Shown here: positions 967-59,606 of the stretch, one piece after another
Position numbering within the stretch: the first letter of the stretch is position 1
How the letters are laid out: each line of letters opens with the position of its first letter
Notes under the pieces: model-generated
Told to the model about the DNA's origin: nothing
The model's database searches: none
What the model saw: only the letters and a program-made list of their open reading frames with translations
Assembly (NCBI GenBank): GCA_028286725.1
Contig: JAQBQZ010000012.1
Location: 5,562 to 69,561, forward strand
DNA length: 64,000 nt
DNA from: Candidatus Tayloriibacteriota bacterium
Lineage (GTDB): Bacteria; Patescibacteriota; Minisyncoccia; Phycocordibacterales; CAIRYW01
Reading direction: 5' to 3'
Position numbers and translations under genes: made by a program

Positions 967-971
967 ATTAT

Positions 972-1604
972 TTAAATATCAATTCTTCTTTGAGATACCA
1001 TTGTTTGCAAATGAAACTCTGTCAGATCGCCAAATCCTTGATAATGCCCTTTTACAATAATAATGATTCTTGGCTGATCATAGTCTCCAGTATTGGTCTT
1101 TCCTGTACCTGTTAGATAAAAATTAAGGGCATCAATCTTTACCTCTCCACTCGTTAAAGACTGCACAGCACCACCATCGACAGATTTTGTTATAGCACCT
1201 TTGGTGTCATCCAAAACATATATGACTGGTTTGTTACCTGATTGAGTAGAAGTAAAACTGAGTGAAGTTCCTCCACCTGGACAATCTCCTCCACCCCCAC
1301 TAGCACCTGAACAATGATAATCATATCCTGTACGCATATCTCGCACCATTGCTTCGAGCGCAAAATTGAGATTCGAAAGTACCGAAGTGATCGCCTGTGA
1401 TTTTTTGTTTGCAGACACGATAGAAAGTACTGCGCCAATAGCAACTACCATCACAAGAGCAAAGATCGTAACTGCAACCATGATCTCGATCAATGTAAAT
1501 CCAGAATTAAGTTTCTGTTTTTTTGATTTGTCTTTTACTTTTTGATTTAGTATTTTCATTTTTTGTCCCAAAAAGATTAGAGTCCTGTCGCTATATCGGC
1601 ACAC
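972..1604 (-). CDS. minor pilin / pseudopilin (prepilin-type N-terminal domain)
   Basis: NSGFTLIEIMVAVTIFALVMVVAIGA motif, Gly-rich central region with paired Cys. Overlaps the upstream pilin gene by 28 nt, indicating translational coupling. Confidence 0.6.
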   Translation of the reverse strand: MCRYSDRTLIFLGQKMKILNQKVKDKSKKQKLNSGFTLIEIMVAVTIFALVMVVAIGAVLSIVSANKKSQAITSVLSNLNFALEAMVRDMRTGYDYHCSGASGGGGDCPGGGTSLSFTSTQSGNKPVIYVLDDTKGAITKSVDGGAVQSLTSGEVKIDALNFYLTGTGKTNTGDYDQPRIIIIVKGHYQGFGDLTEFHLQTMVSQRRIDI

Positions 1605-2386
1605 CCTCCGCTTGTGTCATTAGGATCTATTGGATCAACAGATATTTGGCCCGAAACTGACACGCTCACCGTACGACATTTGTCTCCGAGTCCTGACTGT
1701 ACAACAATCTTTGCTTCGCTATATGTTTTGATGCCGTCAGGTCCGCCAGTTTTGGTTCCCATCGTAATATGCGCATCCGGATTTGGTCTTACATAAACAA
1801 TATTCAACACATGCCCAGATGAGTCAGGGCCACAAACCCATCCTCCATCGGCTTTTGCACAATACTGTTTAATAGTCTGACCTTGAGTAAGCTGAATTAC
1901 CTTATCTACACTATCTACGCCGCCCGTCTGATTCTGATCGGACTGTGCAGTATAATAATAATCAAATATTTTTGAATCATCAGTAACAGGATCCAAAATT
2001 GGAGTCTCTGAAACATCAACAAAGTTTATGAATGAATTTGGATTTCCACCATCAGTTCCCGGCTCAAAATGTACGCCATAACCTGACTTATACGGAATAG
2101 TACTACTCGCTTTTGAACTTAACCCAGAAACTGCAGCATCTCTAACAGAAAGAGCGACCTCGTATGCCACATCAGTGATGAGCACGTCACTTGAAAATTT
2201 GCTTTGACGAAACAAAACAGCCGAAGTCACAATGAGCATGATTGAAACCGTAATGATAAGTTCAATCAAAGAAAAACCTCGAGAATGACAAGTAAACAAG
2301 TCAAATTTTGGCTTGTTGCATTTATTTTCAATTTTCACTCTCTCGAGTATCAACTTCTGTTGTGTTTTTTTATTTTTGATTTGCAT
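1577..2386 (-). CDS. minor pilin-like protein (prepilin-type N-terminal domain, longer leader)
   Basis: SRGFSLIELIITVSIMLIVTSAV motif after a ~35-aa leader, 269 aa. Sits immediately downstream of pilD. Confidence 0.5.
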   Translation of the reverse strand: MQIKNKKTQQKLILERVKIENKCNKPKFDLFTCHSRGFSLIELIITVSIMLIVTSAVLFRQSKFSSDVLITDVAYEVALSVRDAAVSGLSSKASSTIPYKSGYGVHFEPGTDGGNPNSFINFVDVSETPILDPVTDDSKIFDYYYTAQSDQNQTGGVDSVDKVIQLTQGQTIKQYCAKADGGWVCGPDSSGHVLNIVYVRPNPDAHITMGTKTGGPDGIKTYSEAKIVVQSGLGDKCRTVSVSVSGQISVDPIDPNDTSGGCADIATGL

Positions 2387-2391
2387 TTTTT

Positions 2392-3210
2392 TTACATTCC
2401 AAACAAAAATACATTAATACTCAAAAGATCTGGTGAGTAATAATAAGCAAGCAAAGTACCGAGTACAAGAAACGGAGCAAACGGCATTTCACTTTTCATT
2501 TTCAAAAGCGGAATATTAAGCTTCACAATCTTCTGGAGACCAATCATTACTAGAGACACTGCTGCTGCAATCCAAAATCCAAGAATGATTGCAGATGCGC
2601 CTTTCGCAAGACCAAGGAGTAGTCCAATTCCCAAAGCAAGCTTTCCATCTCCAAGTCCCATCCATTCTCCATTTGACCATCTCCAGAGTGCATAAAATGG
2701 TAAGAAAAGTATGGGCCCAGCAAGCAGATTCAATAACCCTCCGAGAGTTTTGAAGTAAAATATATTATGCGTTGCCAAAAGCCAGACAAAAGAAAGTGAT
2801 GCGAACCACAAGGCAAGCTTGTCTGGCACAATCTTGTGCCTGATATCGTAGACCGAGATAACAATAAGGATTGAAAAAATGGCGAAGTAAAATACCATCG
2901 AAAGTGCGGAAACAAATGGAAATCCCGCGAGAGTTTTGAAGTACACAATTACAAATACAATACCTGTAATTATTTCTACAAGCGGATATTGCCAAGACAA
3001 TGGAGTCTTGCAAGATTTGCATTTACCGCGTTGAAACAAGAAGCTAAAAACTGGAATAAGTTCAAGTGCATTCAAAACCTTTCCACATGAAAAACAAAAT
3101 GATCTACCGCCCACTGTTCTTCCTGTTTTAAAACGAAGAATAACAACATTAAGAAAACTTCCAATAATCACTCCAAATATAAATACAAAAATAGCTATTG
3201 TTGAAATCAT
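2392..3210 (-). CDS. pilD: prepilin peptidase (A24 family, PilD/ComC-like)
   Basis: Multi-TM protein with the N-terminal zinc-binding tetracysteine CFSCGKVLNALELIPVF...GKCKSCKTPLS, typical of PilD. Located inside the pilin cluster. Confidence 0.85.
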   Translation of the reverse strand: MISTIAIFVFIFGVIIGSFLNVVILRFKTGRTVGGRSFCFSCGKVLNALELIPVFSFLFQRGKCKSCKTPLSWQYPLVEIITGIVFVIVYFKTLAGFPFVSALSMVFYFAIFSILIVISVYDIRHKIVPDKLALWFASLSFVWLLATHNIFYFKTLGGLLNLLAGPILFLPFYALWRWSNGEWMGLGDGKLALGIGLLLGLAKGASAIILGFWIAAAVSLVMIGLQKIVKLNIPLLKMKSEMPFAPFLVLGTLLAYYYSPDLLSINVFLFGM

Positions 3211-3260
3211 ATGATAATTATATAGTGAAAAGTTGAAAGTTGAAAGGCTCTAAAGTGGAT

Positions 3261-3294
3261 GAAAAAATAAAATACGCGGTGCTAGAGGCACCGC
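3261..3294 (-). terminator. rho-independent terminator-like hairpin downstream of pilin gene 3333..3791
   Basis: aaatacgcggtgc-taga-ggcaccgcgtattt inverted repeat followed by a T run in the minus-strand sense. Confidence 0.5.
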
Positions 3295-3332
3295 GTATTT
3301 TTCTATAGACTAATGACCATCAACCAGTACAT

Positions 3333-3791
3333 CTACGGTCCCTTTATCTGATAGTTCGCACTTGTACCAGTATCAAGACAGCTCACCTCATTATGCATTG
3401 CATCAGTTTCCATGGTGGCCCCAAAGCAATACCCTTTTGGACTTGTGATCAACTTATAAAAATAATCAGTATGAGATTGTGGGTCCTGTGGGGCAGCATT
3501 ATTTGTAAAGTATTGATTTAGATCAGCGAGAGCGGGAGGAAACTGTCCATTATGCTCACTAAAATACACCTGTGCCGCTTGATCAAGAGATTTTAAATCC
3601 CCTGCGCGTACCGTATCTCTACTTTTTAGCCTACTATCACTTAATCCAGCAAATGAAAGGCTTGCTAATATACCAATGATTGCGATCACGACCATAAGCT
3701 CGATCAGCGTGAACCCAGACCTTCTATTATTAATTTCTTTTTTATATATCATTTTTTTAAAAATAACTGACTCAAAATTAAGATGCAACAA
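3333..3791 (-). CDS. type IV pilin (prepilin)
   Basis: RSGFTLIELMVVIAIIGILASLSF class III signal and N-terminal helix, 152 aa, followed by its own terminator. Confidence 0.75.
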   Translation of the reverse strand: MLHLNFESVIFKKMIYKKEINNRRSGFTLIELMVVIAIIGILASLSFAGLSDSRLKSRDTVRAGDLKSLDQAAQVYFSEHNGQFPPALADLNQYFTNNAAPQDPQSHTDYFYKLITSPKGYCFGATMETDAMHNEVSCLDTGTSANYQIKGP

Positions 3792-3794
3792 TAC

Positions 3795-4211
3795 CTATTC
3801 CACAGAAGTAGTGACGCAACCAGATGAATCAGTACAAGTGACAGAATTACCCGCATCGTCACTTGCAGAAAAAGAAAATGTGTTTGAAGATGGATCAGAG
3901 ATGGGATTACTATAAGTCCAACCTGGCGCAATAACTGGCCACGAAGGAGTTGAAACGCCGCATATATCCCCACCCCCTTCAGTCAATGAGGCCATATTCT
4001 GAAGAGCATCTTTAGAATCCATACAAGCAACAGCAATAGGGAGAATACTGCTCATAGTCGTCTGTGCAGAAGCGATTTTTGATTTTGCTCGAGAACTAAG
4101 AAGTGCCGCAGTGACAACTGCTGCAAGAATACCGATGATAGCAATTACTACCAAAAGTTCGAGCAATGTAAATCCTGACGCTAAGTTTTGTCTTTTTTTC
4201 TTAATTTTCAT
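3795..4211 (-). CDS. type IV pilin (prepilin)
   Basis: ASGFTLLELLVVIAIIGILAAVV motif, 138 aa, C-terminal Cys pair. Confidence 0.75.
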   Translation of the reverse strand: MKIKKKRQNLASGFTLLELLVVIAIIGILAAVVTAALLSSRAKSKIASAQTTMSSILPIAVACMDSKDALQNMASLTEGGGDICGVSTPSWPVIAPGWTYSNPISDPSSNTFSFSASDDAGNSVTCTDSSGCVTTSVE

Positions 4212-4245
4212 TATTAATATTATATCATTAAAAAAATAAATATTA

Positions 4246-4275
4246 AAAATCCACAGCTTTCGCTGTGGATTTTTA
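4246..4275 (-). terminator. rho-independent terminator-like hairpin downstream of pilin gene 4300..4698
   Basis: aaaaatccacagc-tttc-gctgtggattttt inverted repeat. Confidence 0.5.
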
Positions 4276-4299
4276 ATCTTAAATTGATCTTAAGAAAAC

Positions 4300-4698
4300 T
4301 TAACAGTTAGCACCACTGAGACCACCGTCTGTAAGGTTAACAGTACAAGCTGCTCCAGCTGCTGTTACAGCTCCGTTAGTAGCAGTTACAGCAACACTGA
4401 ATGAACCGTCTCCTGTTGGTCCACACTTGTTACCTGTAGATCCTCCAGCTGCAATAGTACCTACTGAGTAGTGACCAGTTACACCCGCGAGAGCAGCAGG
4501 ATTAGATGTTGACAATGCAGCAGTATCACATGCAGTTACAAGAGCAGGAAGCATACTTGAAGCTTCTGAATTGAATGCAGCAACTTTTGCTTTTGCACGA
4601 GCACTGTTAAGAGAAACCAAAACTACTGATGAGAGAATACCGATGATTGCGATAACAACCAAGAGCTCAATCAATGTAAAACCTTTATTTTTTTTCAT
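4300..4698 (-). CDS. pilA: type IV pilin, likely major pilin (PilA-like)
   Basis: MKKNKGFTLIELLVVIAIIGILSSVVLVSLNSARAKAK: short leader, G|FTLIE, Ala/Gly/Thr-rich body with Cys pair. Monocistronic, flanked by its own terminator hairpins and a long AT-rich upstream region. Confidence 0.75.
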   Translation of the reverse strand: MKKNKGFTLIELLVVIAIIGILSSVVLVSLNSARAKAKVAAFNSEASSMLPALVTACDTAALSTSNPAALAGVTGHYSVGTIAAGGSTGNKCGPTGDGSFSVAVTATNGAVTAAGAACTVNLTDGGLSGANC

Positions 4699-4903
4699 AA
4701 CGAAAAATTTTTATAAAATTAACGAACTATTAATAATCAATTGATTATGCCTTTTTAACGAAAAAGACGAACGACATTCGACCGTAACATAATTATATCT
4801 TGTTTGAAGAAAATAAAAAGAAAAAAACAATTAAGTTGGGGAAAACATTTAGGTAGAATAAAGAATTCGGAATTAAGTATTATGTATAAAAAATAAATTC
4901 ATT

Positions 4904-4939
4904 AAAAAACTTTCTTGCCCTGAAGCAAGAAAGTTTTTT
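4904..4939 (-). terminator. terminator-like hairpin between pilC and the pilA-like gene
   Basis: aaaaaactttcttgc-cctgaa-gcaagaaagtttttt perfect inverted repeat with a T run. Confidence 0.55.
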
Positions 4940-4975
4940 ATTATTAATTCGTAATTCCAAATACTTAATTATGTC

Positions 4976-6181
4976 TTAAATTGATGCCGAAATATTGTAG
5001 ATCGGAATAAGTACTGATGCGAGAAGGAATGCAACACCGAGTCCGAGCAGAACAATCATCACAGGTTCGATAAGATCAACAAGAGTATCTACTGCATTCA
5101 CCACTTCTCTCTGGTAGAATTTTGCAAGAGTATCCAAAATACTTCCGAGCTCTCCTGTCTCTTCTCCGATCTTTGCCATTTGAACAACAATACTTGGAAT
5201 CTCTGAATTACCTGAAAGCGCTTCTGACAAAGGTCTTCCACCTTTGACCAAGTCCATCGCTTTTTTGAGTACCTCTTGATATACCTTGCTATCAACAACA
5301 TCAGATGTTAGTTCCAAAGCTTTAATCATTGGGATTCCAGAAACAAGAAGCGTGTTCATGTTGTCAGCAATACGAGAAAGGTAAAGTTTTTTATAGAGTG
5401 TACCTACATATGGTACAGAAAGCTTTGCGCTGTCCATCATCAAAGCCCCTTTCTCTCCGAGACTGCTTCGATAAATAAAAAATCCAAGAATGACTATAGC
5501 GATCAAAAAAAGAATTCCGTAGTTAACCAAAAAATTACTGAATCCAATCACAATACGAGTATATATAGGTATCTGCTGACCTGATTCAGTGATGATAGCA
5601 GAGATCTTTGGGATAACGAGAGTAAGCATCAAAACCATCACAGAGATGAATGTAAATACAACGAAGGCAGGATAGATGAGCGCATTCTTTGCCTTACTTG
5701 ATACCGCATAGTTACGATCCAAATAATCTGCCAAATACATAAATGTCTGATCGAGCTTTCCAGATTCTTCACCGGCCTTCACCATGTTTACATAGAATGT
5801 TGAAAATACTTTTGGATGTTTTGAAAGCGCCTTAGAGATACTCGCACCCGCCTGAATATCATCAGCGACTTCAGAGATCTTTTCACCCAAGACCTTATTT
5901 TCTGTTTCACCTCCCAAAAGTCTGAAAACTCGAAGTGCAGATACCTGTGCAGCAAAGAGTGTTGCGATCTGACGAGAAAGAATCACCACATCTTTGTTTG
6001 ATACTCGTTCAAGCCATTTGATCTTCATACTTAGACCTTTTTTTTCTTCCACAGAATTGATCTGAGTAATCACGAGTCCTCTTCTTTGAATCGAACTTAT
6101 TGCGACATCATTATTAAGCGCCTCAACTGAGCCACTTTGTTCTTGTCCTTGTGCATCTAATGCTTTGTAATTAAAGAGCAT
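4976..6181 (-). CDS. pilC: type IV pilus inner-membrane platform protein PilC (GspF family)
   Basis: 401 aa with two T2SS-F repeats and 3 TM segments, in the standard position beside pilT and pilB. Confidence 0.85.
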   Translation of the reverse strand: MLFNYKALDAQGQEQSGSVEALNNDVAISSIQRRGLVITQINSVEEKKGLSMKIKWLERVSNKDVVILSRQIATLFAAQVSALRVFRLLGGETENKVLGEKISEVADDIQAGASISKALSKHPKVFSTFYVNMVKAGEESGKLDQTFMYLADYLDRNYAVSSKAKNALIYPAFVVFTFISVMVLMLTLVIPKISAIITESGQQIPIYTRIVIGFSNFLVNYGILFLIAIVILGFFIYRSSLGEKGALMMDSAKLSVPYVGTLYKKLYLSRIADNMNTLLVSGIPMIKALELTSDVVDSKVYQEVLKKAMDLVKGGRPLSEALSGNSEIPSIVVQMAKIGEETGELGSILDTLAKFYQREVVNAVDTLVDLIEPVMIVLLGLGVAFLLASVLIPIYNISASI

Positions 6182-6188
6182 ATATTTT

Positions 6189-7250
6189 TTATATCATTCT
6201 TTCGAGCATCTTTGGATTAAATGCATACTTGTATGCGCTCTCGATTGTGATCTCGCCTCTTCGTACCAAATCTGCAAGGCATCTATTCATATCGATCATT
6301 CCTAATTCTGAACTTGTTTCAATCACTGTGTTTATTTCGTGCACTCTTTTTTCTCGAATGAGGTTTGATACCGCACTGTTTACGATCAAGAGCTCGTATG
6401 CGGGAATAAGTCCCCCAGAAATTCGAGGAATAAGTCTCTGAGAAAATACACCAATAAGAGACGACGCGAGCTGAACTCGGATCTGATCTTGCTGTGTCGA
6501 TGGAAATGAATCAATAATACGATCGATAGTCTGAGCCGCATTGTTTGTGTGAAGTGTTGAAAACACCAAGTGTCCTGTTTCAGCCGCTGTTACTGCCGCA
6601 GCCATAGTTTCCGCATTACGCATCTCGCCCACAAGAAGTACATTCACATCTTGTCGGAGAGCTTCAGTAAGCGCGATACCGAAATCCTTTGTATCAATAT
6701 GCACCTCTCTTTGATCAATGATAGATTTTTTTTGGTCGTAGAGGTATTCTACAGGATCTTCGATCGTCACAATATGTTCTGCCCTTTCTTCATTGATGAG
6801 TTCAATCATTGATGCAAGAGTCGTTGTCTTTCCCTGTCCTACAGGACCCACCACGAGAAAGAAACCTTGCTTTCGTCTTGCAAAATCAGCAAGTGTTGGA
6901 GGCAGCTTAAGCTCTTCAACTGTTTTGATCTGTTTTGGAATAAGTCGAAGCGCGATAGAGATATGTCCTTGCTGAAAATAGGCATTGCCTCGAAATCTTC
7001 CTCTGTCATTAAAATCGTAAGAAAAATCAACTTCTTTAGTATTATCAAAAATAGCTTTCATCTCTGCTGTCACCATGAGATTCAAAAGCTCTGTCGTATC
7101 CTCTTTTTTAAGAACATTTTTTCGAGCAAGAGGAACAAGAGCTCCTGCAACACGAATTGTTGGCTGCCTTCCTTCTGATAAATGAAGATCCGATGCGCCT
7201 TCGCGCACTACGATATCGAGCAGATCATTTAACTCTTGTTTGTAATCCAT
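6189..7250 (-). CDS. pilT: twitching-motility / retraction ATPase PilT
   Basis: 353 aa with Walker A GPVGQGKTTTLASMI, Asp box and the His box GEMRNAETMAAAVTAAETGHLVFSTLHTNNAAQTIDRIID characteristic of PilT. Confidence 0.85.
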   Translation of the reverse strand: MDYKQELNDLLDIVVREGASDLHLSEGRQPTIRVAGALVPLARKNVLKKEDTTELLNLMVTAEMKAIFDNTKEVDFSYDFNDRGRFRGNAYFQQGHISIALRLIPKQIKTVEELKLPPTLADFARRKQGFFLVVGPVGQGKTTTLASMIELINEERAEHIVTIEDPVEYLYDQKKSIIDQREVHIDTKDFGIALTEALRQDVNVLLVGEMRNAETMAAAVTAAETGHLVFSTLHTNNAAQTIDRIIDSFPSTQQDQIRVQLASSLIGVFSQRLIPRISGGLIPAYELLIVNSAVSNLIREKRVHEINTVIETSSELGMIDMNRCLADLVRRGEITIESAYKYAFNPKMLERMI

Positions 7251-7281
7251 TTATTTTTTATGAATCTATAAATAATATTAA

Positions 7282-7713
7282 TTATTTTCCGTTCTCTTTT
7301 GCAATATCTGTAATCTGCCGAAGTACTTCTGAAGGAATAGTCGTTGCCTTAACAATGTATCCATTGATGCCGAACGCCTTTGCACGATCAATGTCTGATG
7401 GCTGACCCTGGTTTGAAAGTATAATGACCACAGACCCTTCCGCGAGATTTTCTTCCCTGATCTTTGCAAGAAGTTCGATACCATCCATTTCTGGCATAAT
7501 AACGTCAAGCAAAACGATATCAGGCTTCAAACCTGTTCGAAGTTTTTCTAGAGCCTCAGTTGGCCGAGACACAGAGATCACATCCATTCCCTCTTTTGTA
7601 AACTTCATTGTGTACATACTCAATATAAACTTGTCGTCATCCACGATCATTATATTGAATTTCTTTTTTGCTTCTGCAGGAGCAGTGTTTGTTGTAGTTG
7701 TGTTTTCTTCCAT
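7282..7713 (-). CDS. single-domain response regulator (CheY-like receiver, PilH/PilG-like)
   Basis: IMIVDDDKFILSMYTMKF...DIVLLDVIMPEMDGIELL...K at the expected positions, 143 aa, no output domain. Located between pilB and pilT. Confidence 0.75.
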   Translation of the reverse strand: MEENTTTTNTAPAEAKKKFNIMIVDDDKFILSMYTMKFTKEGMDVISVSRPTEALEKLRTGLKPDIVLLDVIMPEMDGIELLAKIREENLAEGSVVIILSNQGQPSDIDRAKAFGINGYIVKATTIPSEVLRQITDIAKENGK

Positions 7714-7744
7714 ACAAATATTATATCATAAAACTTTGCTAAAA

Positions 7745-9475
7745 TTATACCAAGTTGTTGATTTCTTCTATCGGGATTTCCTTTTTGAGCATTTTGATTA
7801 TGGCATCTTCTCGCATTGTGAGCATTCCTTTATTTCGTACCACTTTCCATATCTCAGGAGCTGATGGATTAGTTAGAATTACTTTTTCTAATTCTTTATC
7901 CATCTTGTACATTTCAAACACAGCCACTCGTCCTTTTGTACCTTTTGGACATTCAGGTGTCGGTGCGTTCTCTAACACTTCTGTAACTATAGGTATTTCT
8001 TTTTTGTATTCTTCCGGAAGGTCAGCAAACTGCTTATCCATCATAGCCTGCACACTTCCCTCTACTGCCATTGGCTTTCCTGAACCAGGACAGATCTTTG
8101 ACACAAGTCGCTGAGCCATCGAAAGAATAAGTGTTGGAGCAATAAGAAAAGGATCCACACCCATATCTATGAGTCGCGGAACAACTCCAATAGAGTCGTT
8201 GGTGTGAATAGTTGAAAGCACAAGGTGGCCTGTAAGCGCCGCTTGAATCGCGAGCTGGGCAGTTTCTTTATCTCGAATTTCTCCCACCATAATAATATCA
8301 GGGTCTTGTCGAAGCGTGGTTCGAAGTCCCGTTGCAAATGTGTATCCGATCTCAGGCCGCACCTGTGACTGACTCACTCCATCAATATTATACTCAACTG
8401 GATCTTCAAGTGAGAGCACGTTGTGACTTTCCTTATCAACTTCTTCGAGCATTGAATAGAGCGTTGTACTTTTACCAGATCCTGTTGGACCTGAAATGAG
8501 GATCAGTCCATAAGGCCTCTTGATCGCCTCTCGGATCATTGCAAGATTTCTCTCTGACATTTCAAGCTGGCCAAGCCCCTTTACACCTTTGGCCTGGTCC
8601 AAAATTCGCATCACGACTTTTTCACCATAATACACAGGAAAAGTAGATACTCGAAAATCGATCTTCCGTCCATCAATTCGAGCAGAAAATCGTCCGTCCT
8701 GAGGCTTTCGTTTTTCATCGAGCTTCATATTTGAGAGAATCTTGATTCGAGCAACTACCGCATTTAACACTTTGATTGGAAGAATAAGCGACGTGTGAAG
8801 AGTACCATCGAGTCGAAATCTGACACGAACTTTGTCGCTCACAGGTTCGATGTGTACGTCAGATGCATTACCTTCAATCGCGTATCGAAGAATTGTTGCC
8901 ACAATCTTTGTTACCGGAGCATCTTCAATAATATTTGTCTGATTTATTTTTTCGCCGAGATTTTCATCTTCTGATTCGGATTGTGCAATCTCCTTTTCTT
9001 CATCCGTAAGATCTGTTTCGAGCTCAGTCAAAGCCTTAGTCACTTCTCCAGAAAGTCCTTTGTAACACTCCATTGCCTTCTTGTAATCTTCTTCAGAAAT
9101 GAGAAAGATCTTGTATGGAATATTATTTTTTGAAGAAATGAAGTTCAGTGCATCGCGCGCCTCAAAATTTTCTGGATCTATCACTCCAACCTCAAGAACT
9201 CCATCTGCCACATCAATCGGTATCATTTTATAAAACGATGCGGACTCTTCGGGAAGATATTTTAATATTTCAAACGGAATCGCGGGCTTTGGAATCTTTT
9301 TGACCGGCACACCCAAGAACTCAGCCTTCGCATCAAGAATAGTATATGCATCAATCCCCTTTAGGGCGAGTAGCGACTCAGCACTTGATTCGCCATTTAA
9401 AAGTTCTGCACGAACATTCTTAGCGATTTCTGGACTTACAATTCCTTTTTGTAATAAGACATCTATAACATTCAT
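7745..9475 (-). CDS. pilB: type IV pilus assembly ATPase PilB (GspE family)
   Basis: 576 aa with an N-terminal GSPII_E_N-like domain, Walker A SGPTGSGKSTTLYSML, the His box GEIRDKETAQLAIQAALTGHLVLSTIHTN and a Cys-containing C-terminal region. Confidence 0.85.
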   Translation of the reverse strand: MNVIDVLLQKGIVSPEIAKNVRAELLNGESSAESLLALKGIDAYTILDAKAEFLGVPVKKIPKPAIPFEILKYLPEESASFYKMIPIDVADGVLEVGVIDPENFEARDALNFISSKNNIPYKIFLISEEDYKKAMECYKGLSGEVTKALTELETDLTDEEKEIAQSESEDENLGEKINQTNIIEDAPVTKIVATILRYAIEGNASDVHIEPVSDKVRVRFRLDGTLHTSLILPIKVLNAVVARIKILSNMKLDEKRKPQDGRFSARIDGRKIDFRVSTFPVYYGEKVVMRILDQAKGVKGLGQLEMSERNLAMIREAIKRPYGLILISGPTGSGKSTTLYSMLEEVDKESHNVLSLEDPVEYNIDGVSQSQVRPEIGYTFATGLRTTLRQDPDIIMVGEIRDKETAQLAIQAALTGHLVLSTIHTNDSIGVVPRLIDMGVDPFLIAPTLILSMAQRLVSKICPGSGKPMAVEGSVQAMMDKQFADLPEEYKKEIPIVTEVLENAPTPECPKGTKGRVAVFEMYKMDKELEKVILTNPSAPEIWKVVRNKGMLTMREDAIIKMLKKEIPIEEINNLV

Positions 9476-9480
9476 ACTAT

Positions 9481-9939
9481 TTATTTTTTAGCTGCAGGCT
9501 TTGCAGTTGTAGGAGGAACCACTGTTGTCTTTTTTGGTGTGATCTTTTGGAGAGCTGGTGTAGGAGTTCCTTGAGGTGTTGTTGTAGCCGTCTCATCAAC
9601 GAAACCAAGACCCTCAACGTTAGAGACAACATCGCTTGTGATGGTTCCATCAAATGGATTACTTTTACCAACACTTTCTGGCACAATAGCCTGACTTCGA
9701 TCAACAAGCGCACGAAATACCGGATCAAGAAAGAGCTTTTCATCCAAAGTCACATTCTGAATCTTCAAAAGAAGCGGCAAGAGATCTTCTTCCGGACTTG
9801 TCGGATTAGCAACATTTGAAGTCTTTAGCAATGCAGTTGAAGTGTCTTGTTTTACAAAAGTATTGTACACAATGAAACCGCCGATTATTACGGCAACAAT
9901 GATCATTGGCTTTTTTAGTTTTTCAAATAGTTCTTGCAT
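9481..9939 (-). CDS. hypothetical single-pass membrane protein with Pro/Thr-rich C-terminal tail, inside the pilus operon
   Basis: N-terminal TM MIIVAVIIGGFIVY and a C-terminal TTTPQGTPTPALQKITPKKTTVVPPTTAKPAAKK low-complexity tail. Sits between pilO-like and pilB with 1-5 nt spacers. Confidence 0.45.
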   Translation of the reverse strand: MQELFEKLKKPMIIVAVIIGGFIVYNTFVKQDTSTALLKTSNVANPTSPEEDLLPLLLKIQNVTLDEKLFLDPVFRALVDRSQAIVPESVGKSNPFDGTITSDVVSNVEGLGFVDETATTTPQGTPTPALQKITPKKTTVVPPTTAKPAAKK

Positions 9940-9942
9940 ATA

Positions 9943-10485
9943 TTATTTTAGCCAATAAGTTCTAATAGTAACTGAGTATTCGGTAAGATTTTTTGGATCT
10001 GTTTTAAACGAAAGGCTTGTGATATCAACTAGACGAAGGCTCTGCTCAAGATCCTTTATGAATGAAACAAACTTAGGATATGTAGCTTTTGTTTTGAATG
10101 AGACTAGGATTGAAGAATAAAGTTTATTGTTTGGTCCGATTTGAGTTGTGCCATCAGATTTATCTTCGTTGATCTGAATTTTGCTTATGAGCATATTATG
10201 CTCTGGCAATCTCGCGATACCATTAATATCCAAAATGAGCTGAACGTTATCGATATGATCTGGGAGAAGTTTTTTGACTGAATCAAGATCAGTTTCACTA
10301 AAATGCTTATATTTATCCTGCAATTCCTGCCTTTTTTTAAGAACCTCATTTGATTTGCTGAATGCTTTTTCGTAGCTTGCAATATCCACCTGCAAACCTT
10401 GAATAGTCTGGTACACAGGACTAACATAGAACACAAAGATTCCGACAGAAGCAAGTATTAAGAAAATTGGAATTAAGCTTTTCAT
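9943..10485 (-). CDS. pilO: PilO-like pilus alignment subcomplex protein
   Basis: 180 aa with an N-terminal TM and a coiled-coil segment, directly downstream of pilN-like. Assignment is by position and architecture. Confidence 0.5.
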   Translation of the reverse strand: MKSLIPIFLILASVGIFVFYVSPVYQTIQGLQVDIASYEKAFSKSNEVLKKRQELQDKYKHFSETDLDSVKKLLPDHIDNVQLILDINGIARLPEHNMLISKIQINEDKSDGTTQIGPNNKLYSSILVSFKTKATYPKFVSFIKDLEQSLRLVDITSLSFKTDPKNLTEYSVTIRTYWLK

Positions 10486-11192
10486 TATTTTGTTGTTGGA
10501 TTAGGATTTGGATTAAGAAGATTATCGATCATGCTTGTGTTTGGTGTATTTGCTGCAGGCGTATTTGAAGGAGTGTTTATTATATTATCAGGACTCGCTG
10601 AAGTATCTGTACTAGCCTTTCTTGTGTAATTTATAAATCCAGGATCAATCTTTGTTGTGAAGTTAAAAATCACGTTGCCAAATGTATCAAGATCAAGATT
10701 AGAAAAGAGCGGAGTCTTCAAGGCTCTCTCCTTGCCAAATACCTCTGCCTGATACGCAACTGCGTTATAGCTCTTTGCCTGACCATTCATAGTAAGCGAC
10801 GCAGTTCCGTCTGGACCAACTTCATATTTGAAATCATTGAATTTTACACTCTGGATGGTTGACTCTTGAAGGAAGTCAAAAATATAAGACACTGCAACGT
10901 GGCTTGCGAGGAGAGTTTTGGCAGAATCAATACGGTTGTTAAGTCGTACATATTCATCAAGTGTTTGAGGTTCAAATGATTTCACATTTCGCTCAAGATC
11001 ACTCTGGATTTTTGCTTTTGAAGTCTCCAAATACTTATCCCATCCGAATGCGCCTCCGGCGACAAGTACTGTAATAAAAAAGATGATACTTGAAATAAAA
11101 GAAAAGAACCCGAGTGGCTTGTGCACGGTATTAGTAGCTATTGGATCGAGACTTGTCTTTGGTATGAAAGATGTTTGGAATTTTGTTTCCAT
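10485..11192 (-). CDS. pilN: PilN-like pilus alignment protein
   Basis: Single TM (FFSFISSIIFFITVLVAGGAFGW) followed by a coiled coil. ORF-track start 11279 likely over-extends; the internal start METKFQ at 11192 is preferred. Confidence 0.5.
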   Translation of the reverse strand: METKFQTSFIPKTSLDPIATNTVHKPLGFFSFISSIIFFITVLVAGGAFGWDKYLETSKAKIQSDLERNVKSFEPQTLDEYVRLNNRIDSAKTLLASHVAVSYIFDFLQESTIQSVKFNDFKYEVGPDGTASLTMNGQAKSYNAVAYQAEVFGKERALKTPLFSNLDLDTFGNVIFNFTTKIDPGFINYTRKASTDTSASPDNIINTPSNTPAANTPNTSMIDNLLNPNPNPTTK

Positions 11193-11280
11193 AAATTTAA
11201 AATAATTATAGCACAAATAAAAAAGTAAAGTGTACAAACCTAGTGGAAAAGTGCACGAGTATAGTTTCAAATAAATCAAA

Positions 11281-11313
11281 AAGAGCTGCGCCCAAGGGCG
11301 CAGCTCTTTTTTT
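11281..11313 (-). terminator. terminator-like hairpin downstream of pilM
   Basis: agagctgcgccc-aag-ggcgcagctct followed by ttttttt. Confidence 0.5.
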
Positions 11314-11330
11314 ACACTATATATATTAAG

Positions 11331-12449
11331 TTAATCCAATTCCTGAAGTTTACGAAGCGCTACTCCCACCGCCACCGCAAAATCAAGACCGGTCTGTTTT
11401 AATAGATCTGAAAGAAACACCGGCGCATCAACTTTTGCAAAAGGATTCCCGAGCACAACCTCTGTTTCAAATCGACTTCGTGCTGTTTCAAAAAATCCCT
11501 TCATCGCAACGCCACCTCCTGTGAGATATACTTTACTGATGCTTTTGTTATGCTTCTTTTGATATGACACCATAAGACCTCCCGCTTCACCGAAGATATA
11601 ATCAAGCGTAAGTCCCACTATTTCATAAACACTTTTCTGATCGGCTGGACTCACCTCTCCTAAATTTCTTTTGATCTTTTCTGCTTTTTCAATTGTTACC
11701 TGAAGCCCTTTTGAAATACTTTGCGTAATATCTTGAGACCCTTTGTTTATGATATGAGATTCTTTGACTACCCCTCTTTCTGAAATATAGATCTTTGTTG
11801 ATGATGCACCCATATCAAAAATCATTACAGGCGCGATCTCACGGTCAACAAGTGACCTGATAGATGCGAACATCTCGATCTCAAAAAAAGTTGTATGGAG
11901 TCCTGCAGCCTGCACAATTGAATTATATCCTTGCAAAATTTCGTTGTGTATTGAAACCAGGAGCACTTCTGTTTTATCTTGCTTCTGAATTTTCTTTTCT
12001 TTGTTTTCAATATCAAAATCAAAAGCCTTCTCTTCTTCTTTTGGAATGATCCACCAATCAAGCGCCACTTCTGAAATAGGAACAGGAATAAATTTTCTCG
12101 CTTCAATCGGAATCATCTCACGAAGTTTTGCTTCAGGAAGCGCAGGCATCTCAACCAAAGACACGAGAGATGATCGAAGTGGAATAGATACTCCGGAATT
12201 TAATGTGGTTGCGTTTGATTCTTTGATCACATCTCGGATCGCTTCACCTATTTTGTCAGGACCGAGATTTGTCGCCTGGCCAATAATGAGCCCCGCGTAC
12301 GGGCCGAGCGCAAGCGAACCATAAGTTTTGAGCACCGCTCTTCCTTTTACTTTTGCAAGCTGCACTATTTTAATTGCAGATGTACCAATATCAATACCAA
12401 TAACATTGGTATCAGATTTAGCAAAAAAGTTTTTAAAAGGATTATCCAT
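11331..12449 (-). CDS. pilM: type IV pilus assembly protein PilM (actin-like ATPase fold)
   Basis: IGIDIGTSAIKIVQL phosphate-1 motif and length match PilM. Preferred start is MDNPFKNFF at 12449; the ORF-track start 12521 is probably over-extended. Confidence 0.75.
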   Translation of the reverse strand: MDNPFKNFFAKSDTNVIGIDIGTSAIKIVQLAKVKGRAVLKTYGSLALGPYAGLIIGQATNLGPDKIGEAIRDVIKESNATTLNSGVSIPLRSSLVSLVEMPALPEAKLREMIPIEARKFIPVPISEVALDWWIIPKEEEKAFDFDIENKEKKIQKQDKTEVLLVSIHNEILQGYNSIVQAAGLHTTFFEIEMFASIRSLVDREIAPVMIFDMGASSTKIYISERGVVKESHIINKGSQDITQSISKGLQVTIEKAEKIKRNLGEVSPADQKSVYEIVGLTLDYIFGEAGGLMVSYQKKHNKSISKVYLTGGGVAMKGFFETARSRFETEVVLGNPFAKVDAPVFLSDLLKQTGLDFAVAVGVALRKLQELD

Positions 12450-12488
12450 AATATTTATTCTTGCACTATTGTATAATAGTATATCACA

Positions 12489-13340
12489 ATGTTTTCTAGA
12501 ACCCATCTCAAAATAAACCAAAATAAAAGAACGAAATCATTTGAGTATCCAAAACCAAAAATTTCGGCGAAAAATGAAGTTTCGTCGGTCAATGTAACAC
12601 CGTTACACCTCCCTCCTCATCCTCCATTTTTCTCTTCGAAATTTTTGGTTTTGTATTACTCATTTATTTTGAGATGGGTTCTAAATTTTTTCAAAAAAAT
12701 ACTCTCTTTTCCACAAAAAGCATTCTTGTTCGCCTTTACTGACACAGATACGAAACTCCGAGAGTTAAATCAACTTCCTCTTGCAAGCTGGGGCACGCTC
12801 GCTCATCCGATTCTTCATAGCGAAAACACCCTTTCAATATTTAATTACGATAATAAGATCATTCGCGGTGCGCTCTTCTATATAAAGAACAAGAAGAACG
12901 AAGAAACACTAGCTCAAATGTGCCAAATTGCAGTGGATATATTGCTTGAAGATCTTTCTGAACGCGAGATGCTTGAAAATTTTAGGGATCCCATCATTGT
13001 TTCAATACCCAGCTCAAAAGAACACATATTAAAGCGAGGATACAATCCGAGCGATATCATCGCCTCAAAAATATCTGAGCTTGGAAATATTCCTTATTTC
13101 AAAAACCTTTTGTATAAATCAAAGAACACTCCCGCACAAAAAACTCTCTCTCGATATGAGAGATTGAAGAATGTTAGAAATACTATGGCAATGAAACCAA
13201 AGGATCAGAATAAAATAAAAGAGAGATGCATCATCGTTGTTGACGACATTATGACAACCGGCGGCACACTCAAAGAAGCAAAAAGGGTTCTTCTCAAAGC
13301 TGGAGCAAGGAAAGTGATCGGACTCGCACTCGCACATTAA
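12489..13340 (+). CDS. comFC: ComF/ComFC-like competence protein (phosphoribosyltransferase-type domain)
   Basis: C-terminal PRTase fold motif RCIIVVDDIMTTGGTLKEAKRVLLKAGA. The ATG at 12489 overlaps the divergent pilM; the real start is probably downstream, for example the in-frame TTG at 12669. Confidence 0.6.
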   Translation: MFSRTHLKINQNKRTKSFEYPKPKISAKNEVSSVNVTPLHLPPHPPFFSSKFLVLYYSFILRWVLNFFKKILSFPQKAFLFAFTDTDTKLRELNQLPLASWGTLAHPILHSENTLSIFNYDNKIIRGALFYIKNKKNEETLAQMCQIAVDILLEDLSEREMLENFRDPIIVSIPSSKEHILKRGYNPSDIIASKISELGNIPYFKNLLYKSKNTPAQKTLSRYERLKNVRNTMAMKPKDQNKIKERCIIVVDDIMTTGGTLKEAKRVLLKAGARKVIGLALAH

Positions 13341-51329: not shown

Positions 51330-51331
51330 AA

Positions 51332-53627: not shown

Positions 53628-53720
53628 ATGGATAATGATTTATTTGCGGTTAATTTTGGGATAGATCCTTTCCTGTGTTAAGATATACTATCATAAATTC
53701 AATCAGTATAAAAATGTTCA

Positions 53721-54881: not shown

Positions 54882-54926
54882 ATATCCACAGCCATTTTAA
54901 GTTCTTTTTGTGATATAATTCAACTT

Positions 54927-55217
54927 ATGTCACTTCAATTTGAAGATCAGAATAATCTCCTTGTGCGAAGAAATACGTATCAACAAAACTATGGCCCAAT
55001 AGTGGCTCTTCTACTCAGATTTCATATAGCAAAAACCGAAAAAACAGCCAACAAGATACTATTCATCGTGTCTATTCTTGTATTTATTTGTGCAGCAACG
55101 CTTATTGTAAGAAACGTTATAAAAGCCAACACCCCTGTAAAAGTTAAATACAATCTCTCAAAAGAAGGATTTAATAAACTTCCCCAAAATGTGCAGGTTA
55201 AAATTTTGACACAATAA
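54927..55217 (+). CDS. small hypothetical single-TM protein, translationally coupled to the Cys-rich pilin-like gene
   Basis: 96 aa with TM ILFIVSILVFICAATLIV. Stop at 55217, 2 nt before the pilin-like ATG. Confidence 0.4.
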   Translation: MSLQFEDQNNLLVRRNTYQQNYGPIVALLLRFHIAKTEKTANKILFIVSILVFICAATLIVRNVIKANTPVKVKYNLSKEGFNKLPQNVQVKILTQ

Positions 55218-55219
55218 AA

Positions 55220-57235
55220 ATGCGAAATATATTCAGAAAGCAAAATAGCGGGCGAAATTACTCTGCCGGTTTTACACTGATCGAACTCATGGTTGTCGTG
55301 GCCATTGTTTCACTTCTTGCGAGTGTAATCGTAGGTCTCGTTTCTTCTTCTCGAGCAAAAGCCAAAGATGCAAATATTGCCACAGAAATTCACCTCATAC
55401 AGCTCGCCCTTGAGGAATACAATACGGGCCATGGAGGATTTCCAAATCCTCAAGGCGGTGACCAATCATCTGACAATATGTACTGTATTGGTTCGACTGA
55501 CTGCATATATAATGGCTATTTAGTAAGTACGCAACTTAAAGGTACAGATATTGCGTTCAATAAGATAAACTCAAACCTTCTTGCATCAAGCTTCCCAGTC
55601 TTTACAAGCGAGCAGATCGCAACACTCGATAACGACAACAAAGGATACATATATGTTGCTTGCGGTGGATCAAATCCTACTTGCCCGAACGATCAGGCAA
55701 TACTTATGTATCCAAAAATTCAAGCCGGTTCTTTTTCTGTCATAAATGTAGGAACCTTTAATGAATCAAGCTGTGAGATCGCTCAATGCCAGGAAAATTA
55801 TGGACACAATTGCGGAAACGGATCGCAAGAGTGCTCAGTTTTTTCAAATACAGAAGGCTCATGTAACTACGATGTAAATGGAAGTGGTGGATCAAGTGGC
55901 ACTTGTACTTGCGGAGGCAACAATTCTGATTGTTCAATGTTTTGTGGCGATAGTTCAAGCAATGACGGCTGTAGCTACGATCCAAATGGAACAGGATCTT
56001 GTAGTTGTAACACCCTTCAATACAGCGAGAGTAGCTACCCTTATTGCTCAAGCGACAGTAACACTGGTAATTATAGTTATGATAGCGGTAATAGTGGATG
56101 GTGCAGCGGAAGTGGTTATAGCTACTATGGATCAGGCACACCTTCTAACTACCCTTACTATAACGGCACAGGTAGCTGTATCTCTGTAAATGTTTCTTCA
56201 TCGTACGGCAATGGCCAAAGTGGAAGCTATTGTAATATGCCGTATGATCCAGGATATCAAGAGAGTTCATATCCTTGGTTTACAAGCGACAGTACAGCGG
56301 GATCCTATGGATATTCTTCTGGAAACGGTTGGTCTGGATATGGATATTACGGAACATCTTATCCAAGTGGTTACCCTTACGCAGGAGGGTCTGGAAGCTG
56401 TATCTACATATCAGTATCTAGTTCATATGGTGGAGGCTACTATACAAACTATTACTGCAACTCTCAAAACATAGTGTATGGATGTACCGATTCAGGTGCA
56501 TGCAACTATGACCCAAATGCCAATTCAAATTCAGGATGTGATTACTCTTGCCACGATACAACGGTATATGGATGCACAGATGGTTCAGCTTGCAACTACA
56601 ATTCGAGTGCGAATAGTAATGATGGAAGCTGTGAATACATGAGTTGTCACACTGTGTATGGATGTACGAGCGGTTCAGCTTGCAACTACAATTCGAGTGC
56701 AACAAATGATGACGGAAGTTGCGAATACACGAGCTGCATGACAACTTATGGATGTACTGATAGCACAGCTTGTAACTACAACTCAAGTGCGAACTATAGC
56801 GACGGAAGCTGTGACTATTCAAGCTGTCATTCATACTCCTGCCAAGGAACTCCATCTTGTGGTTATGGTGACTCATATTCATGTCAAAACTACAATAACT
56901 ACAGCGGCAGTAACTGTTCTTGGAGCAGCAACGGCGGGTCATGTTCAGGAACATATTACACATCAGGAGATTGTAGTGCATTCAATAATGACTACTGGGC
57001 TTGTAGCAACAATGGATGTAATACAAATTACGATGATAATAGCAACTTCTATTGTTCTGGTATGTATAACACCGGAAACGATTGCTCATCACTTGATTCA
57101 GGAAGCTGTGGATCATACTCTGGCTGTTCATGGAACGACTACGGAGGTTCTTGTAACGTATCTCGAAACTGTAGCGACAACACCGATTCAAACAGTTGTG
57201 GAAACACATCAGGATGTACTTGGACATACTCTTAA
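55220..57235 (+). CDS. giant type IV pilin-like protein: canonical prepilin N-terminus plus pilin globular domain, then a ~500-aa Cys/Gly/Ser/Tyr/Asn-rich repetitive extension
   Basis: MRNIFRKQNSGRNYSAGFTLIELMVVVAIVSLLASVIVGLVSSSRAKAKD (G|FTLIE, Glu+5), pilin-like domain ending YVACGGSNPTCPND, then two ~75-aa repeats and four ~30-aa tandem repeats YGCTD(S/G)xACNY(D/N)xxANxxxGSC(D/E)YxSC. About 70 Cys, 671 aa. Confidence 0.7.
   Translation: MRNIFRKQNSGRNYSAGFTLIELMVVVAIVSLLASVIVGLVSSSRAKAKDANIATEIHLIQLALEEYNTGHGGFPNPQGGDQSSDNMYCIGSTDCIYNGYLVSTQLKGTDIAFNKINSNLLASSFPVFTSEQIATLDNDNKGYIYVACGGSNPTCPNDQAILMYPKIQAGSFSVINVGTFNESSCEIAQCQENYGHNCGNGSQECSVFSNTEGSCNYDVNGSGGSSGTCTCGGNNSDCSMFCGDSSSNDGCSYDPNGTGSCSCNTLQYSESSYPYCSSDSNTGNYSYDSGNSGWCSGSGYSYYGSGTPSNYPYYNGTGSCISVNVSSSYGNGQSGSYCNMPYDPGYQESSYPWFTSDSTAGSYGYSSGNGWSGYGYYGTSYPSGYPYAGGSGSCIYISVSSSYGGGYYTNYYCNSQNIVYGCTDSGACNYDPNANSNSGCDYSCHDTTVYGCTDGSACNYNSSANSNDGSCEYMSCHTVYGCTSGSACNYNSSATNDDGSCEYTSCMTTYGCTDSTACNYNSSANYSDGSCDYSSCHSYSCQGTPSCGYGDSYSCQNYNNYSGSNCSWSSNGGSCSGTYYTSGDCSAFNNDYWACSNNGCNTNYDDNSNFYCSGMYNTGNDCSSLDSGSCGSYSGCSWNDYGGSCNVSRNCSDNTDSNSCGNTSGCTWTYS
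56474..56832 (+). repeat. four ~90-nt tandem repeats inside the pilin-like gene
   Basis: Units start near 56474, 56563, 56652 and 56743. ggttcagcttgcaactacaattcgagtgc is identical at 56582 and 56671. Confidence 0.75.
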
Positions 57236-57249
57236 AATAGGTAAAATAA

Positions 57250-57286
57250 AAAAACCCTTGGACCACACGGTCCAAGGGGTTTTTTA
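57250..57286. terminator. bidirectional terminator between the pilin-like gene (+) and ftsW (-)
   Basis: aaaaacccttggacc-acac-ggtccaaggggttttt. Confidence 0.65.
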
Positions 57287-57297
57287 TTTTAAGTTTA

Positions 57298-58428: not shown

Positions 58429-58440
58429 GTTTTTTATTTA

Positions 58441-59541: not shown

Positions 59542-59605
59542 CAAAGTTTTTAATATACAAAAAAAGCGCCCATTGGGCGCTTTTTTTTGTATATTAAAAA
59601 CTTTG
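59542..59605. terminator. 64-bp perfect palindrome at the 3' end of the rRNA operon
   Basis: caaagtttttaatatacaaaaaaagcgccc-att-gggcgctttttttgtatattaaaaactttg. Confidence 0.7.
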
Positions 59606-59606
59606 T

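Follow-up and report, generated by a model that had tools for sequence, protein, structure and literature searches.

A probable modular type IV pilin with a cysteine-rich repeat extension encoded by a Candidatus Tayloriibacteriota bacterium

Ultrasmall bacteria of the candidate phyla radiation (CPR) depend on attachment to other cells, and pili are the best candidates for this function. Modular pilins are known to carry grafted effector modules, probably at the filament tip, and a survey of such proteins lists CPR examples with many repeated motifs (PMC8179133). In addition, CPR minor pilins with extra C-terminal domains have been implicated in host binding, the major pilins being small (PMC11623550). 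A small module of relevance to what follows is known from perforin-2 (MPEG-1), where a truncated epidermal growth factor (EGF)-like hinge, or small folded linker, lies between the MACPF and P2/MABP domains (PMC6989145, PMC7593815). Here we analyse a 64,000-nucleotide stretch from a Candidatus Tayloriibacteriota bacterium (contig JAQBQZ010000012.1; hereafter the window), in which the open reading frame (ORF) 55220..57235 (+) encodes, in uninterrupted frame, a prepilin of 671 aa with a repetitive and cysteine-rich C-terminal part. With modest confidence we take this part (aa ~187-671) to be the extension of a modular type IV pilin, forming an acidic, lysine-free and disulfide-stapled stalk of a subunit that would act as an adhesin at the pilus tip or be a rare component of the filament.

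The pilin character of the gene is clear from its N-terminus. The class III signal peptide and the N-terminal hydrophobic helix (55220..55330 (+)) are matched by PF07963 (aa 12-37, E = 7.9e-8, 32 bits with a cut-off of 21.2) and by TIGR02532 (aa 12-37, 26.6 bits with a cut-off of 16.3), in agreement with a preliminary description of this DNA that had called the segment a pilin extension, and the N-termini of pilins and GspG proteins in the PDB match aa 15-80, PDB pilins matching within aa 15-108 only. Matches of the GspG, ComG and PilA types are likewise partial and limited to aa 12-80, and the model of the GspG major pseudopilin, TIGR01710, reaches 40.6 bits over aa 17-80 only, below its cut-off of 88.85. 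The leader reads MRNIFRKQNSGRNYSAG, with predicted cleavage before F18 (G/FTLIE) and Glu at +5, and the region around the site, ...NYSAG/FTLIELMVVVAIVSLLASVIVGLV, has the short basic leader, the Gly at -1, the Phe at +1, the Glu at +5 and the subsequent hydrophobic helix of ~20 aa that define class III signal peptides, so that the N-terminus, ...NYSAG/FTLIELMVVVAIVSLLASV, is a textbook example of the kind. The pilin head (aa ~38-186, 55331..55777 (+)) comprises the remainder of helix alpha-1 and a beta-sheet region according to an alignment of six relatives and to AlphaFold2, which when run on the full-length protein with six sequences places a helix over aa 20-71 and strands between aa 87 and 186, with predicted local distance difference test (pLDDT) values there of only 55-78. 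In the alignment of relatives the head motifs HGGYPNP, MYCIGxxDC and NKGYIYLxCG are kept. Furthermore, a prepilin peptidase and the assembly ATPase and platform are encoded in cis within the same window, as detailed below. A bidirectional, terminator-like hairpin is found 3' of the gene at 57255-57278, and a scan for promoter-like patterns gave no more matches than were obtained in shuffled sequence.

Beyond the head the protein consists of four types of Cys-containing modules. Two conserved Cys knots, recognised in the alignment of relatives (aa ~187-265, 55778..56014 (+)), are followed by two copies of a Ser/Tyr/Gly-rich 78-aa repeat (copy 1, aa 266-345, 56015..56254 (+), with Cys 276, 295, 320 and 338; copy 2, aa 346-417, 56255..56470 (+), with Cys 394 and 413), by four tandem 30-aa mini-domains with four Cys each, here called ACNY units (aa 418-537, 56471..56830 (+)), and by a C-terminal tail (aa 541-671, 56840..57232 (+)) that holds 16 Cys and three to four degenerate copies of the unit CxGTPxxC..D...C....GCxW. 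The 671-aa protein has 54 Cys in total, with an even number within each repeat module. The extension contains no Lys, a single Arg and 37 Asp/Glu and has an isoelectric point (pI) of 4.05, and the residues Ser, Gly, Asn, Tyr, Cys, Thr and Asp account for 84% of it (Cys 10%, Tyr 12%).

The preliminary description had reported this repeat architecture from the nucleotide sequence and an ORF list, and the architecture is real, since the strings quoted there are present exactly as written in the ORF, including the Cys-dense tail. Some of its particulars need adjustment, however. The interval given began at 55700 (aa 161), ahead of the repeats, which set in at ~56021, the stretch 55700-56020 being the end of the pilin head and the two Cys knots, and the two long repeats said to be of ~75 aa, whose quoted strings are found at aa 268-333 and 346-406, have a true period of 78 aa (234 nt). 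A nucleotide repeat search places the 234-nt copies at 56027 and 56261, and the local alignment score of the two protein copies is 221, compared to 65 +/- 8.9 in 1000 shuffles of the same composition, none of which reaches 221 (z = 17.5). The four 30-aa units are borne out, starting at nt 56477, 56567, 56657 and 56747 with YGCT at aa 420, 450, 480 and 510. Tandem Repeats Finder, a check of the kind advised, reports a period of 90 with 2.8 copies and 76% matches, and a second nucleotide repeat search finds 3-4 copies of the 90-nt unit at 66-77% nt identity. Unit 1 departs from the consensus that had been proposed, its sequence being ...SNSGCDYSC, in which Cys3 is not preceded by S and the Cys3-Cys4 spacing is one residue shorter, and the 29-nt exact match GGTTCAGCTTGCAACTACAATTCGAGTGC does exist with one copy at 56582, but the other copy is at 56672 and not at 56671. 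Finally, stop codons are not depleted in all six frames but only in frames +2 and -3 (0.014 stops per codon each, compared to 0.048 and 0.075 in 17 long ORFs of the window), whereas they are enriched in frames +3, -1 and -2 (0.104, 0.065 and 0.094, compared to 0.067, 0.039 and 0.036 in the same ORFs); this pattern is an effect of codon composition and a by-product of the Ser/Gly/Asn/Tyr/Cys codon diet.

The ACNY units, which in the window have the form VYGCTDxxACNYxxxAxxxDGSCxYxSC, turn out to be very widespread. An exhaustive HMMER scan of 1.84 billion cluster representatives (clusters at 50% identity) with the four-unit segment matched 10,184 representatives at E <= 1e-3, 4,355 at E <= 1e-10 and 978 at E <= 1e-30. 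When the four window units were used to seed a hidden Markov model (HMM), 1783 units were detected in 118 of the 120 best matches, with the consensus (V/I)(Y)GC(T)(D)xxAxN(Y/F)(D/N)PxA(N/T)xDDGSC over ~24-30 aa, and the family HMM derived from these 1783 units scores window units 1-4 at 41.7, 52.5, 48.9 and 51.0 bits. The unit is matched by no model of Pfam or NCBIfam, not even where a protein has at least 19 canonical copies, and a full-text literature search for the strings ACNYD and ACNYN gave chance matches only; by these searches the unit appears to be a very large family that is without a curated model in the libraries searched. The number of units per protein has a median of 18 and a maximum of 101 in 261 unit-bearing proteins inspected, only two of which have a prepilin N-terminus. 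Because the unit occurs in 10,184 cluster representatives and is so rarely joined to a prepilin N-terminus, the window protein would qualify as a modular pilin, that is, as a pilin module combined with a module that is not specific to pilus biology.

Most of the matched clusters are cargo proteins of the type IX secretion system (T9SS) of Flavobacteriales, and a search with the whole window protein returned hundreds of ~1000-aa proteins that match the unit region only, most of them with the sorting domain PF18962 and several labelled Flavobacteriales. The window pilin itself has no match to the T9SS sorting domain (PF18962 / TIGR04183) in Pfam and NCBIfam scans. Units are furthermore found in CPR, phage and giant-virus proteins. 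The CPR carriers include proteins of Candidatus Buchananbacteria (P0063) and Candidatus Taylorbacteria (P0125), and marine phage proteins with ACNY arrays are matched in BFVD down to E = 3e-12. The phage carriers belong to virus NIOZ-UU157, one of them labelled Crassvirus muzzle protein C-terminal domain, and to cyanophages, in which they are PA14-domain and Rhs-like proteins, and single units match weakly in MACPF proteins of giant viruses (Terrestrivirus, Orpheovirus), a layout that echoes the MACPF-plus-unit arrangement of perforin-2. The domains that adjoin ACNY units elsewhere include the T9SS sorting domain, CBM48, MAM, fn3 and reprolysin peptidase, among others, and the occurrence beside so many unrelated domains fits a generic spacer. 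With respect to the window units themselves, unit 1 is a short-loop variant that is also found in the pilin relative P0011 and in a Candidatus Taylorbacteria protein, being closest to unit 2 of P0011 (85%) and to the Taylorbacteria units (77-80%). Units 2-4 are 67-80% identical to each other at the aa level and also resemble unit 3 of P0011, and their mutual likeness suggests a local, lineage-specific tandem expansion. Units of P0098 are 81% identical to window unit 3.

When the four units were modelled in AlphaFold2 from an alignment of 60 homologous four-unit segments, every unit showed identical short beta elements at a mean pLDDT of 93.4, but the predicted template modelling (pTM) score was only 0.46, and Foldseek superpositions of homologous ACNY arrays have root-mean-square deviations (rmsd) of 8-14 A at 36-46% identity. 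Confidently predicted units of uncertain mutual orientation point to flexible beads on a string rather than to a stack, and it is thus the stacking that is not supported in the earlier idea of stacked, disulfide-stabilised mini-domains. The disulfide-stabilised mini-domain as such is supported by the confident fold, by a solved homologous structure in perforin-2 and by the pattern of cysteines, since Cys1 and Cys3 are conserved in 99% and 93% of the 1783 units, and since Cys2, which is Cys in 33% and otherwise Phe, Leu or Tyr, tends to be present or absent together with Cys4 (250/264/74/905 in 1493 regex-defined units, odds ratio 11.6, Fisher p = 1.7e-72). Covariation and homology thereby suggest a universal Cys1-Cys3 disulfide and an optional Cys2-Cys4 disulfide, and each window unit, having all four Cys, represents the four-Cys variant. 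The 78-aa repeats behave in a similar manner, in that C320/C338 and C394/C413 do not vary among the four known copies, while the pair C276 and C295 is confined to copy 1 and lacking from the other three. That cysteines are gained and lost in pairs argues for disulfides and against free metal-binding thiols.

The remaining modules are less widely shared. The Cys knots have the motifs CG..S.ECS.FS.T.GSCNYDVNGSG.SSGTCTCG and DCSMFCG...NDGCSYDPNGTGSCSC and are kept in five of the six relatives, P0011 having canonical ACNY units at that place. A comparison of knot 1 with knot 2 gives z = 4.1, and the knots (aa 198-263) give weak partial matches to the ACNY HMM (HMM positions 10-30), with z = -0.07 to 1.9 when compared to a canonical unit; possibly they are ACNY half-units that have diverged very far. 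P0008 (688 aa; 37% identity across 99% of the length) is the only other protein found with the 78-aa repeats, and a profile made of the four copies returned nothing, which is weak evidence of absence since the index searched is insensitive for such a composition. A word-indexed search with the pilin head (aa 40-265) suffered from the same insensitivity, returning only P0121 and missing the query's own entry P0001. The tail unit is crisp in P0009 (7 copies), P0011 (6) and P0008 (3), whereas the copies of the window protein are degenerate, with weak HMM matches at aa 541-568, 621-638 and 656-668, and both the window protein and its relatives end just past the last GCxW. Profile searches of the PDB with the 78-aa repeat and the tail unit gave nothing credible, and the full-length AlphaFold2 model has an overall pLDDT of 41 with values below 50 for aa 187-619, so that it says little about the 78-aa repeats and the tail.

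The number of modules varies markedly between the relatives. ACNY units and 78-aa repeats are both absent from P0009 (L081) and P0015, the orthologue at L083 (392 aa) has one ACNY unit and P0011 (context not known) has three, both without 78-aa repeats, P0008 has two 78-aa repeats and no ACNY unit, and the window protein has four and two, respectively; tail units range from 3 to 7. P0008 has yet another Cys motif, CYNNSECFSNNCQNNYCHG...GCSQNSDCASDICNGGYC, at aa ~440-500, where the window protein has its four ACNY units, and a fifth module type thus circulates in the pilin family. The family is evidently rare, since a head-specific pattern scan of JGI metagenomes gave two loci only. When the alignment of the six relatives was searched against the species-representative genomes of GTDB, only generic pilin N-termini (<= aa 1-119) and no full-length relative were found, the best of these N-termini being in metagenome-assembled genomes of Paceibacterota and other Patescibacteria. 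A blastn search of the pilin gene against the whole 64-kb window for a template of the diversity-generating retroelement type gave only the gene itself and its internal repeats.

The link to perforin-2 rests on two kinds of evidence. The only fold matches of the ACNY units in the PDB are MPEG-1 chains, superposed by Foldseek over 25-30 columns with rmsd values of 0.7-0.9 A and 47-52% identity, the Foldseek E-value being weak (~3) because the match is so short. The sequence evidence is independent of this match and stronger, since a profile search with the ACNY alignment finds human MPEG-1 at E = 0.0011 and mouse MPEG-1 at E = 0.008, and with the single-unit family HMM the human and mouse fragments reach 38.1 and 28.8 bits, respectively. 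The match covers chain positions 327-355, corresponding to positions 4-27 of the P2-domain crystal construct, and consequently sits at the MACPF/P2 boundary; it is by this position that we identify the matched piece with the truncated EGF-like module. We tentatively propose, while regarding the proposal as a little short of probable, that the ACNY unit is an ancient, cross-kingdom extracellular mini-domain, which builds long arrays of spacers in over 10,000 clusters of bacterial surface proteins, in structural proteins of marine phages and in MACPF proteins of giant viruses, which survives as a single copy in the MACPF-P2 linker of metazoan perforin-2, and which CPR bacteria have co-opted for a type IV pilin so as to adjust how far an adhesive tip extends. 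If this is true, the truncated EGF-like hinge of perforin-2 belongs to a microbial repeat family and is not an EGF derivative.

The type IV pilus genes of the window form a complete cluster at 292..12521 (-), consisting of PilM (11331-12521), a PilO-like gene (9943-10485), PilB (PF00437, 7745-9475), a response regulator (7282-7713), PilT (PF00437, 6189-7250), PilC (PF00482, 4976-6181), three small pilins of 132-152 aa (3333-4698), the prepilin peptidase PilD (PF06750 and PF01478, 2392-3210) and three larger, minor-pilin-like genes (292-2386), all on the minus strand. By the families present, this machinery should be able to process and assemble the large pilin. The immediate surroundings of the pilin gene are different in kind. 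Immediately upstream of the Ser/Thr-rich pilin, all syntenic loci have genes for glycan synthesis (the initiating transferase Bac_transf, the glycosyltransferase GT4 and NAD-dependent epimerases; 52284-54881 in the window), and in view of these genes O-glycosylation of the stalk is a possibility. Between them and the pilin gene is a conserved 96-aa ORF with one predicted membrane helix (54927..55217 (+)), whose end lies 2 nt upstream of the pilin ATG, for which Pfam gives no match, and which has a 96-aa counterpart in the equivalent position at L081. The ORF is probably part of the same transcription unit and may be a dedicated partner of the large pilin. Downstream, a FtsW/RodA gene is convergent with the pilin gene, and the order Bac_transf, GT4, 96-aa ORF, pilin, FtsW/RodA is common to the window, L081 and L083, these loci being closely related (81-98% nt identity in places). 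Still further downstream is a gene for a 270-aa protein (58441-59253 (-)) that has a membrane helix at its N-terminus as well as a Cys motif, CFDN.QNQDE.GVDCGG.CAL.C, and that is conserved downstream of FtsW/RodA with 257-259 aa at L081 and L083.

Taken as a modular pilin, the protein would function as follows. The prepilin peptidase of the same window would cleave the leader between G17 and F18, and the type IV pilus machinery would take up the N-terminal helix and the head, leaving the extension to project outwards as a chain of small, independently folded and disulfide-stapled modules in the order two Cys knots, two 78-aa repeats, four ACNY mini-domains and three to four CxGTPxC...GCxW units. 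Each ACNY unit would be a tiny beta-bridged fold held by the Cys1-Cys3 bond, to which the four-Cys variant adds Cys2-Cys4, and the units would serve as semi-rigid, protease-resistant spacers, as they seemingly do in other secreted multi-domain proteins and in perforin-2. The acidic stalk with almost no Lys or Arg could thus hold the Tyr/Ser-rich repeats and the terminal units off the filament for contact with a host cell or a surface, and in view of its bulk the subunit would most likely be found at the tip of the pilus or be rare.

Several other explanations have to be considered. Tandem 90-nt units with a 29-nt exact match could be collapsed or expanded during assembly, giving a false frame or copy number, and the preliminary description indeed raised the concern of assembly error as well as that of a chimera, should the motif be absent elsewhere. 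Neither concern is warranted, since contig L082 of the independent Logan assembly (run SRR13312974, 10,498 nt) matches window 49502-59999 at 100% identity and codes for the same protein of 671 aa, and since units of only 66-77% nt identity are too unlike to collapse and distinct enough for short reads. The ORF is moreover unbroken up to the terminator-like hairpin, over 10,000 protein clusters contain the unit, and the unit types recur in unchanged order in the orthologous pilins, P0011 and the L083 orthologue sharing even the junction of units into tail, SC(H/L).(Y)SCQGT..C, with the window protein; an assembly artefact is thus effectively excluded. The notion that the extension forms a metal or mineral-binding surface, either by way of Cys thiols that coordinate metals or by a Tyr/Ser/Gly/Asp-rich surface that binds minerals or Ca2+, is likewise of earlier date. 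It could draw on the high contents of Cys and Tyr and on the 37 acidic residues and low pI of the extension, on the conserved Asp/Asn positions of the ACNY consensus (GCTD, NY(D/N) and DDG) and on the fact that many ACNY proteins also have TSP3-like or anthrax protective antigen (PA)-type Ca-binding motifs. Nothing was found in support of the notion, however, and we consider it very unlikely, because the Cys are paired in gain and loss within modules and even-numbered per repeat module, the homologous piece of perforin-2 has been described as an EGF-like folded module, there are few CxC or CxxC clusters of metallothionein type, and no metal-binding family was matched in Pfam and NCBIfam scans of the window protein.

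Two further alternatives were weighed. Archaeal sugar-binding proteins carry pilin-type signal peptides, and the window protein would resemble these if its class III signal peptide served only for insertion and retention in the membrane, the extension then being a cell-surface stalk or part of the envelope that is never polymerised. In line with this, the gene stands on its own, ~43 kb distant from the pilus cluster and amid envelope genes (Bac_transf, GT4, epimerases, FtsW/RodA), ACNY arrays are found on non-pilin surface proteins of other CPR bacteria (P0063, P0125), and an extension of 485 aa is hard to fit in the body of a filament, as has been argued for other modular pilins (PMC8179133). 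A merely membrane-anchored protein nevertheless seems rather unlikely, since the head is conserved with pilin-like predicted secondary structure and a Cys pair, the complete machinery with PilD is present, and comparable or larger modular pilins are documented, the largest cited having 860 residues (PMC8179133). Conversely, the protein could be the major subunit of a thick and heavily decorated pilus, in which a stalk on every subunit would yield a bottle-brush filament. Its N-terminus is indeed like that of the major (pseudo)pilin GspG, and Raynaud et al. left a location in the filament body possible given a flexible linker (PMC8179133), but the TIGR01710 score of 40.6 bits is far under the 88.85-bit cut-off, the three small pilins beside PilC/PilD are better candidates for the major pilin, and in Saccharibacteria it is the minor pilins that are elaborate, the major ones being small (PMC11623550), which together make a major role improbable. 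The reading that we favour, a modular pilin at the tip or in low number, is itself faced with some difficulties. Apart from the distance to the pilus cluster, the neighbouring glycan and cell-wall synthesis genes could point to a different role or to glycosylation, and gene order in genomes so closely related is weak evidence of functional linkage. The proposed binding part, that is, the 78-aa repeats and the tail, is without relatives beyond a handful of pilins and without a confident structure. Furthermore, disulfide formation is inferred from covariation and homology, and many CPR bacteria live in anoxic water.

Outside the pilin and pilus loci, the window contains a 23S rRNA gene at 59855-63480 (-), which with 3626 nt compares to a model of 2925 positions and holds a group I intron at 60175-60393 (-). 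Intron-bearing rRNA genes are typical of CPR bacteria. The adjoining 5S rRNA lies at 59606-59713 (-), and this stretch is in places 94-98% identical to L081. A tmRNA gene is found at 46016-46410 (+) with a score of 98.8 bits, and three tRNA genes are found at 16063-16149, 33257-33345 and 41700-41773, all on the minus strand. The rRNA and tmRNA genes, taken with the Patescibacteria matches of the pilin N-terminus, point to a bacterium of the CPR.

A pilin with swappable, disulfide-stapled display modules whose number varies among relatives would provide a handle on the evolution of attachment reach and specificity. A definition of the ACNY family would in addition improve annotation, given the thousands of marine "hypothetical proteins" that are largely unannotated, and the placement of the human perforin-2 linker in the family gives this linker an evolutionary context. 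Modular pilins and Cys-rich spacer repeats are, however, both already known concepts, and current understanding is not overturned by their combination here.

Compared to the perforin-2 linker (PDB 6U23, 6U2J, 6SB3 and 6SB1), the ACNY units of the pilin belong to the same sequence family, GCTDxxxxN(F/Y)NxxANxDDGSC, and would likewise form small folded connectors between larger parts. The linker is however a single two-Cys copy with Pro for Cys2 and no Cys4, whereas the pilin has four tandem four-Cys copies, and perforin-2 is a metazoan pore-forming protein in which the role of the hinge in the prepore-to-pore rotation (PMC6989145) has no counterpart in the pilin. Canonical EGF-like domains (PF00008) are similar to the units in being small, disulfide-rich and extracellular and in often serving as tandem spacers, and the proposed Cys1-Cys3, Cys2-Cys4 connectivity equals that of the N-terminal EGF subdomain. 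The ACNY unit is nonetheless shorter and has 2-4 Cys where EGF has six (paired 1-3, 2-4 and 5-6), and no EGF family of Pfam matches the window protein at E <= 1; the EGF-like label originates in the literature on perforin-2 and does not amount to a demonstrated membership of the ACNY unit. The Flavobacteriales T9SS cargo proteins (P0002, P0098, P0124) and the marine phage proteins have tandem arrays of the same unit, often in the four-Cys form ...GSCE(Y/F)TSC, but the cargo proteins typically carry many more units within ~1000-7000 aa and are exported by way of PF18962, unlike the window protein with its prepilin route.

With the minor pilins PilX1 and PilX2 of Saccharibacteria (PMC11623550) the window protein has in common that they are CPR pilus subunits with elaborate C-terminal additions for which host binding has been proposed or shown, but the additions of PilX1 and PilX2 are a jelly-roll and a beta-propeller, and they lack the canonical PilD signal that the window protein has. 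The closest parallel is found in the modular pilins PilB (vWA) and PilC (lectin) of Streptococcus sanguinis (PMC8179133), which likewise begin with a pilin module bearing a class III signal peptide and carry grafted modules that non-pilins possess too, and for which a tip location and an adhesive role have been proposed. In these proteins the graft is a single globular effector domain, whereas in the window protein it is made up of ~12 small, Cys-paired modules of four types, none of which is found in the signature databases searched.

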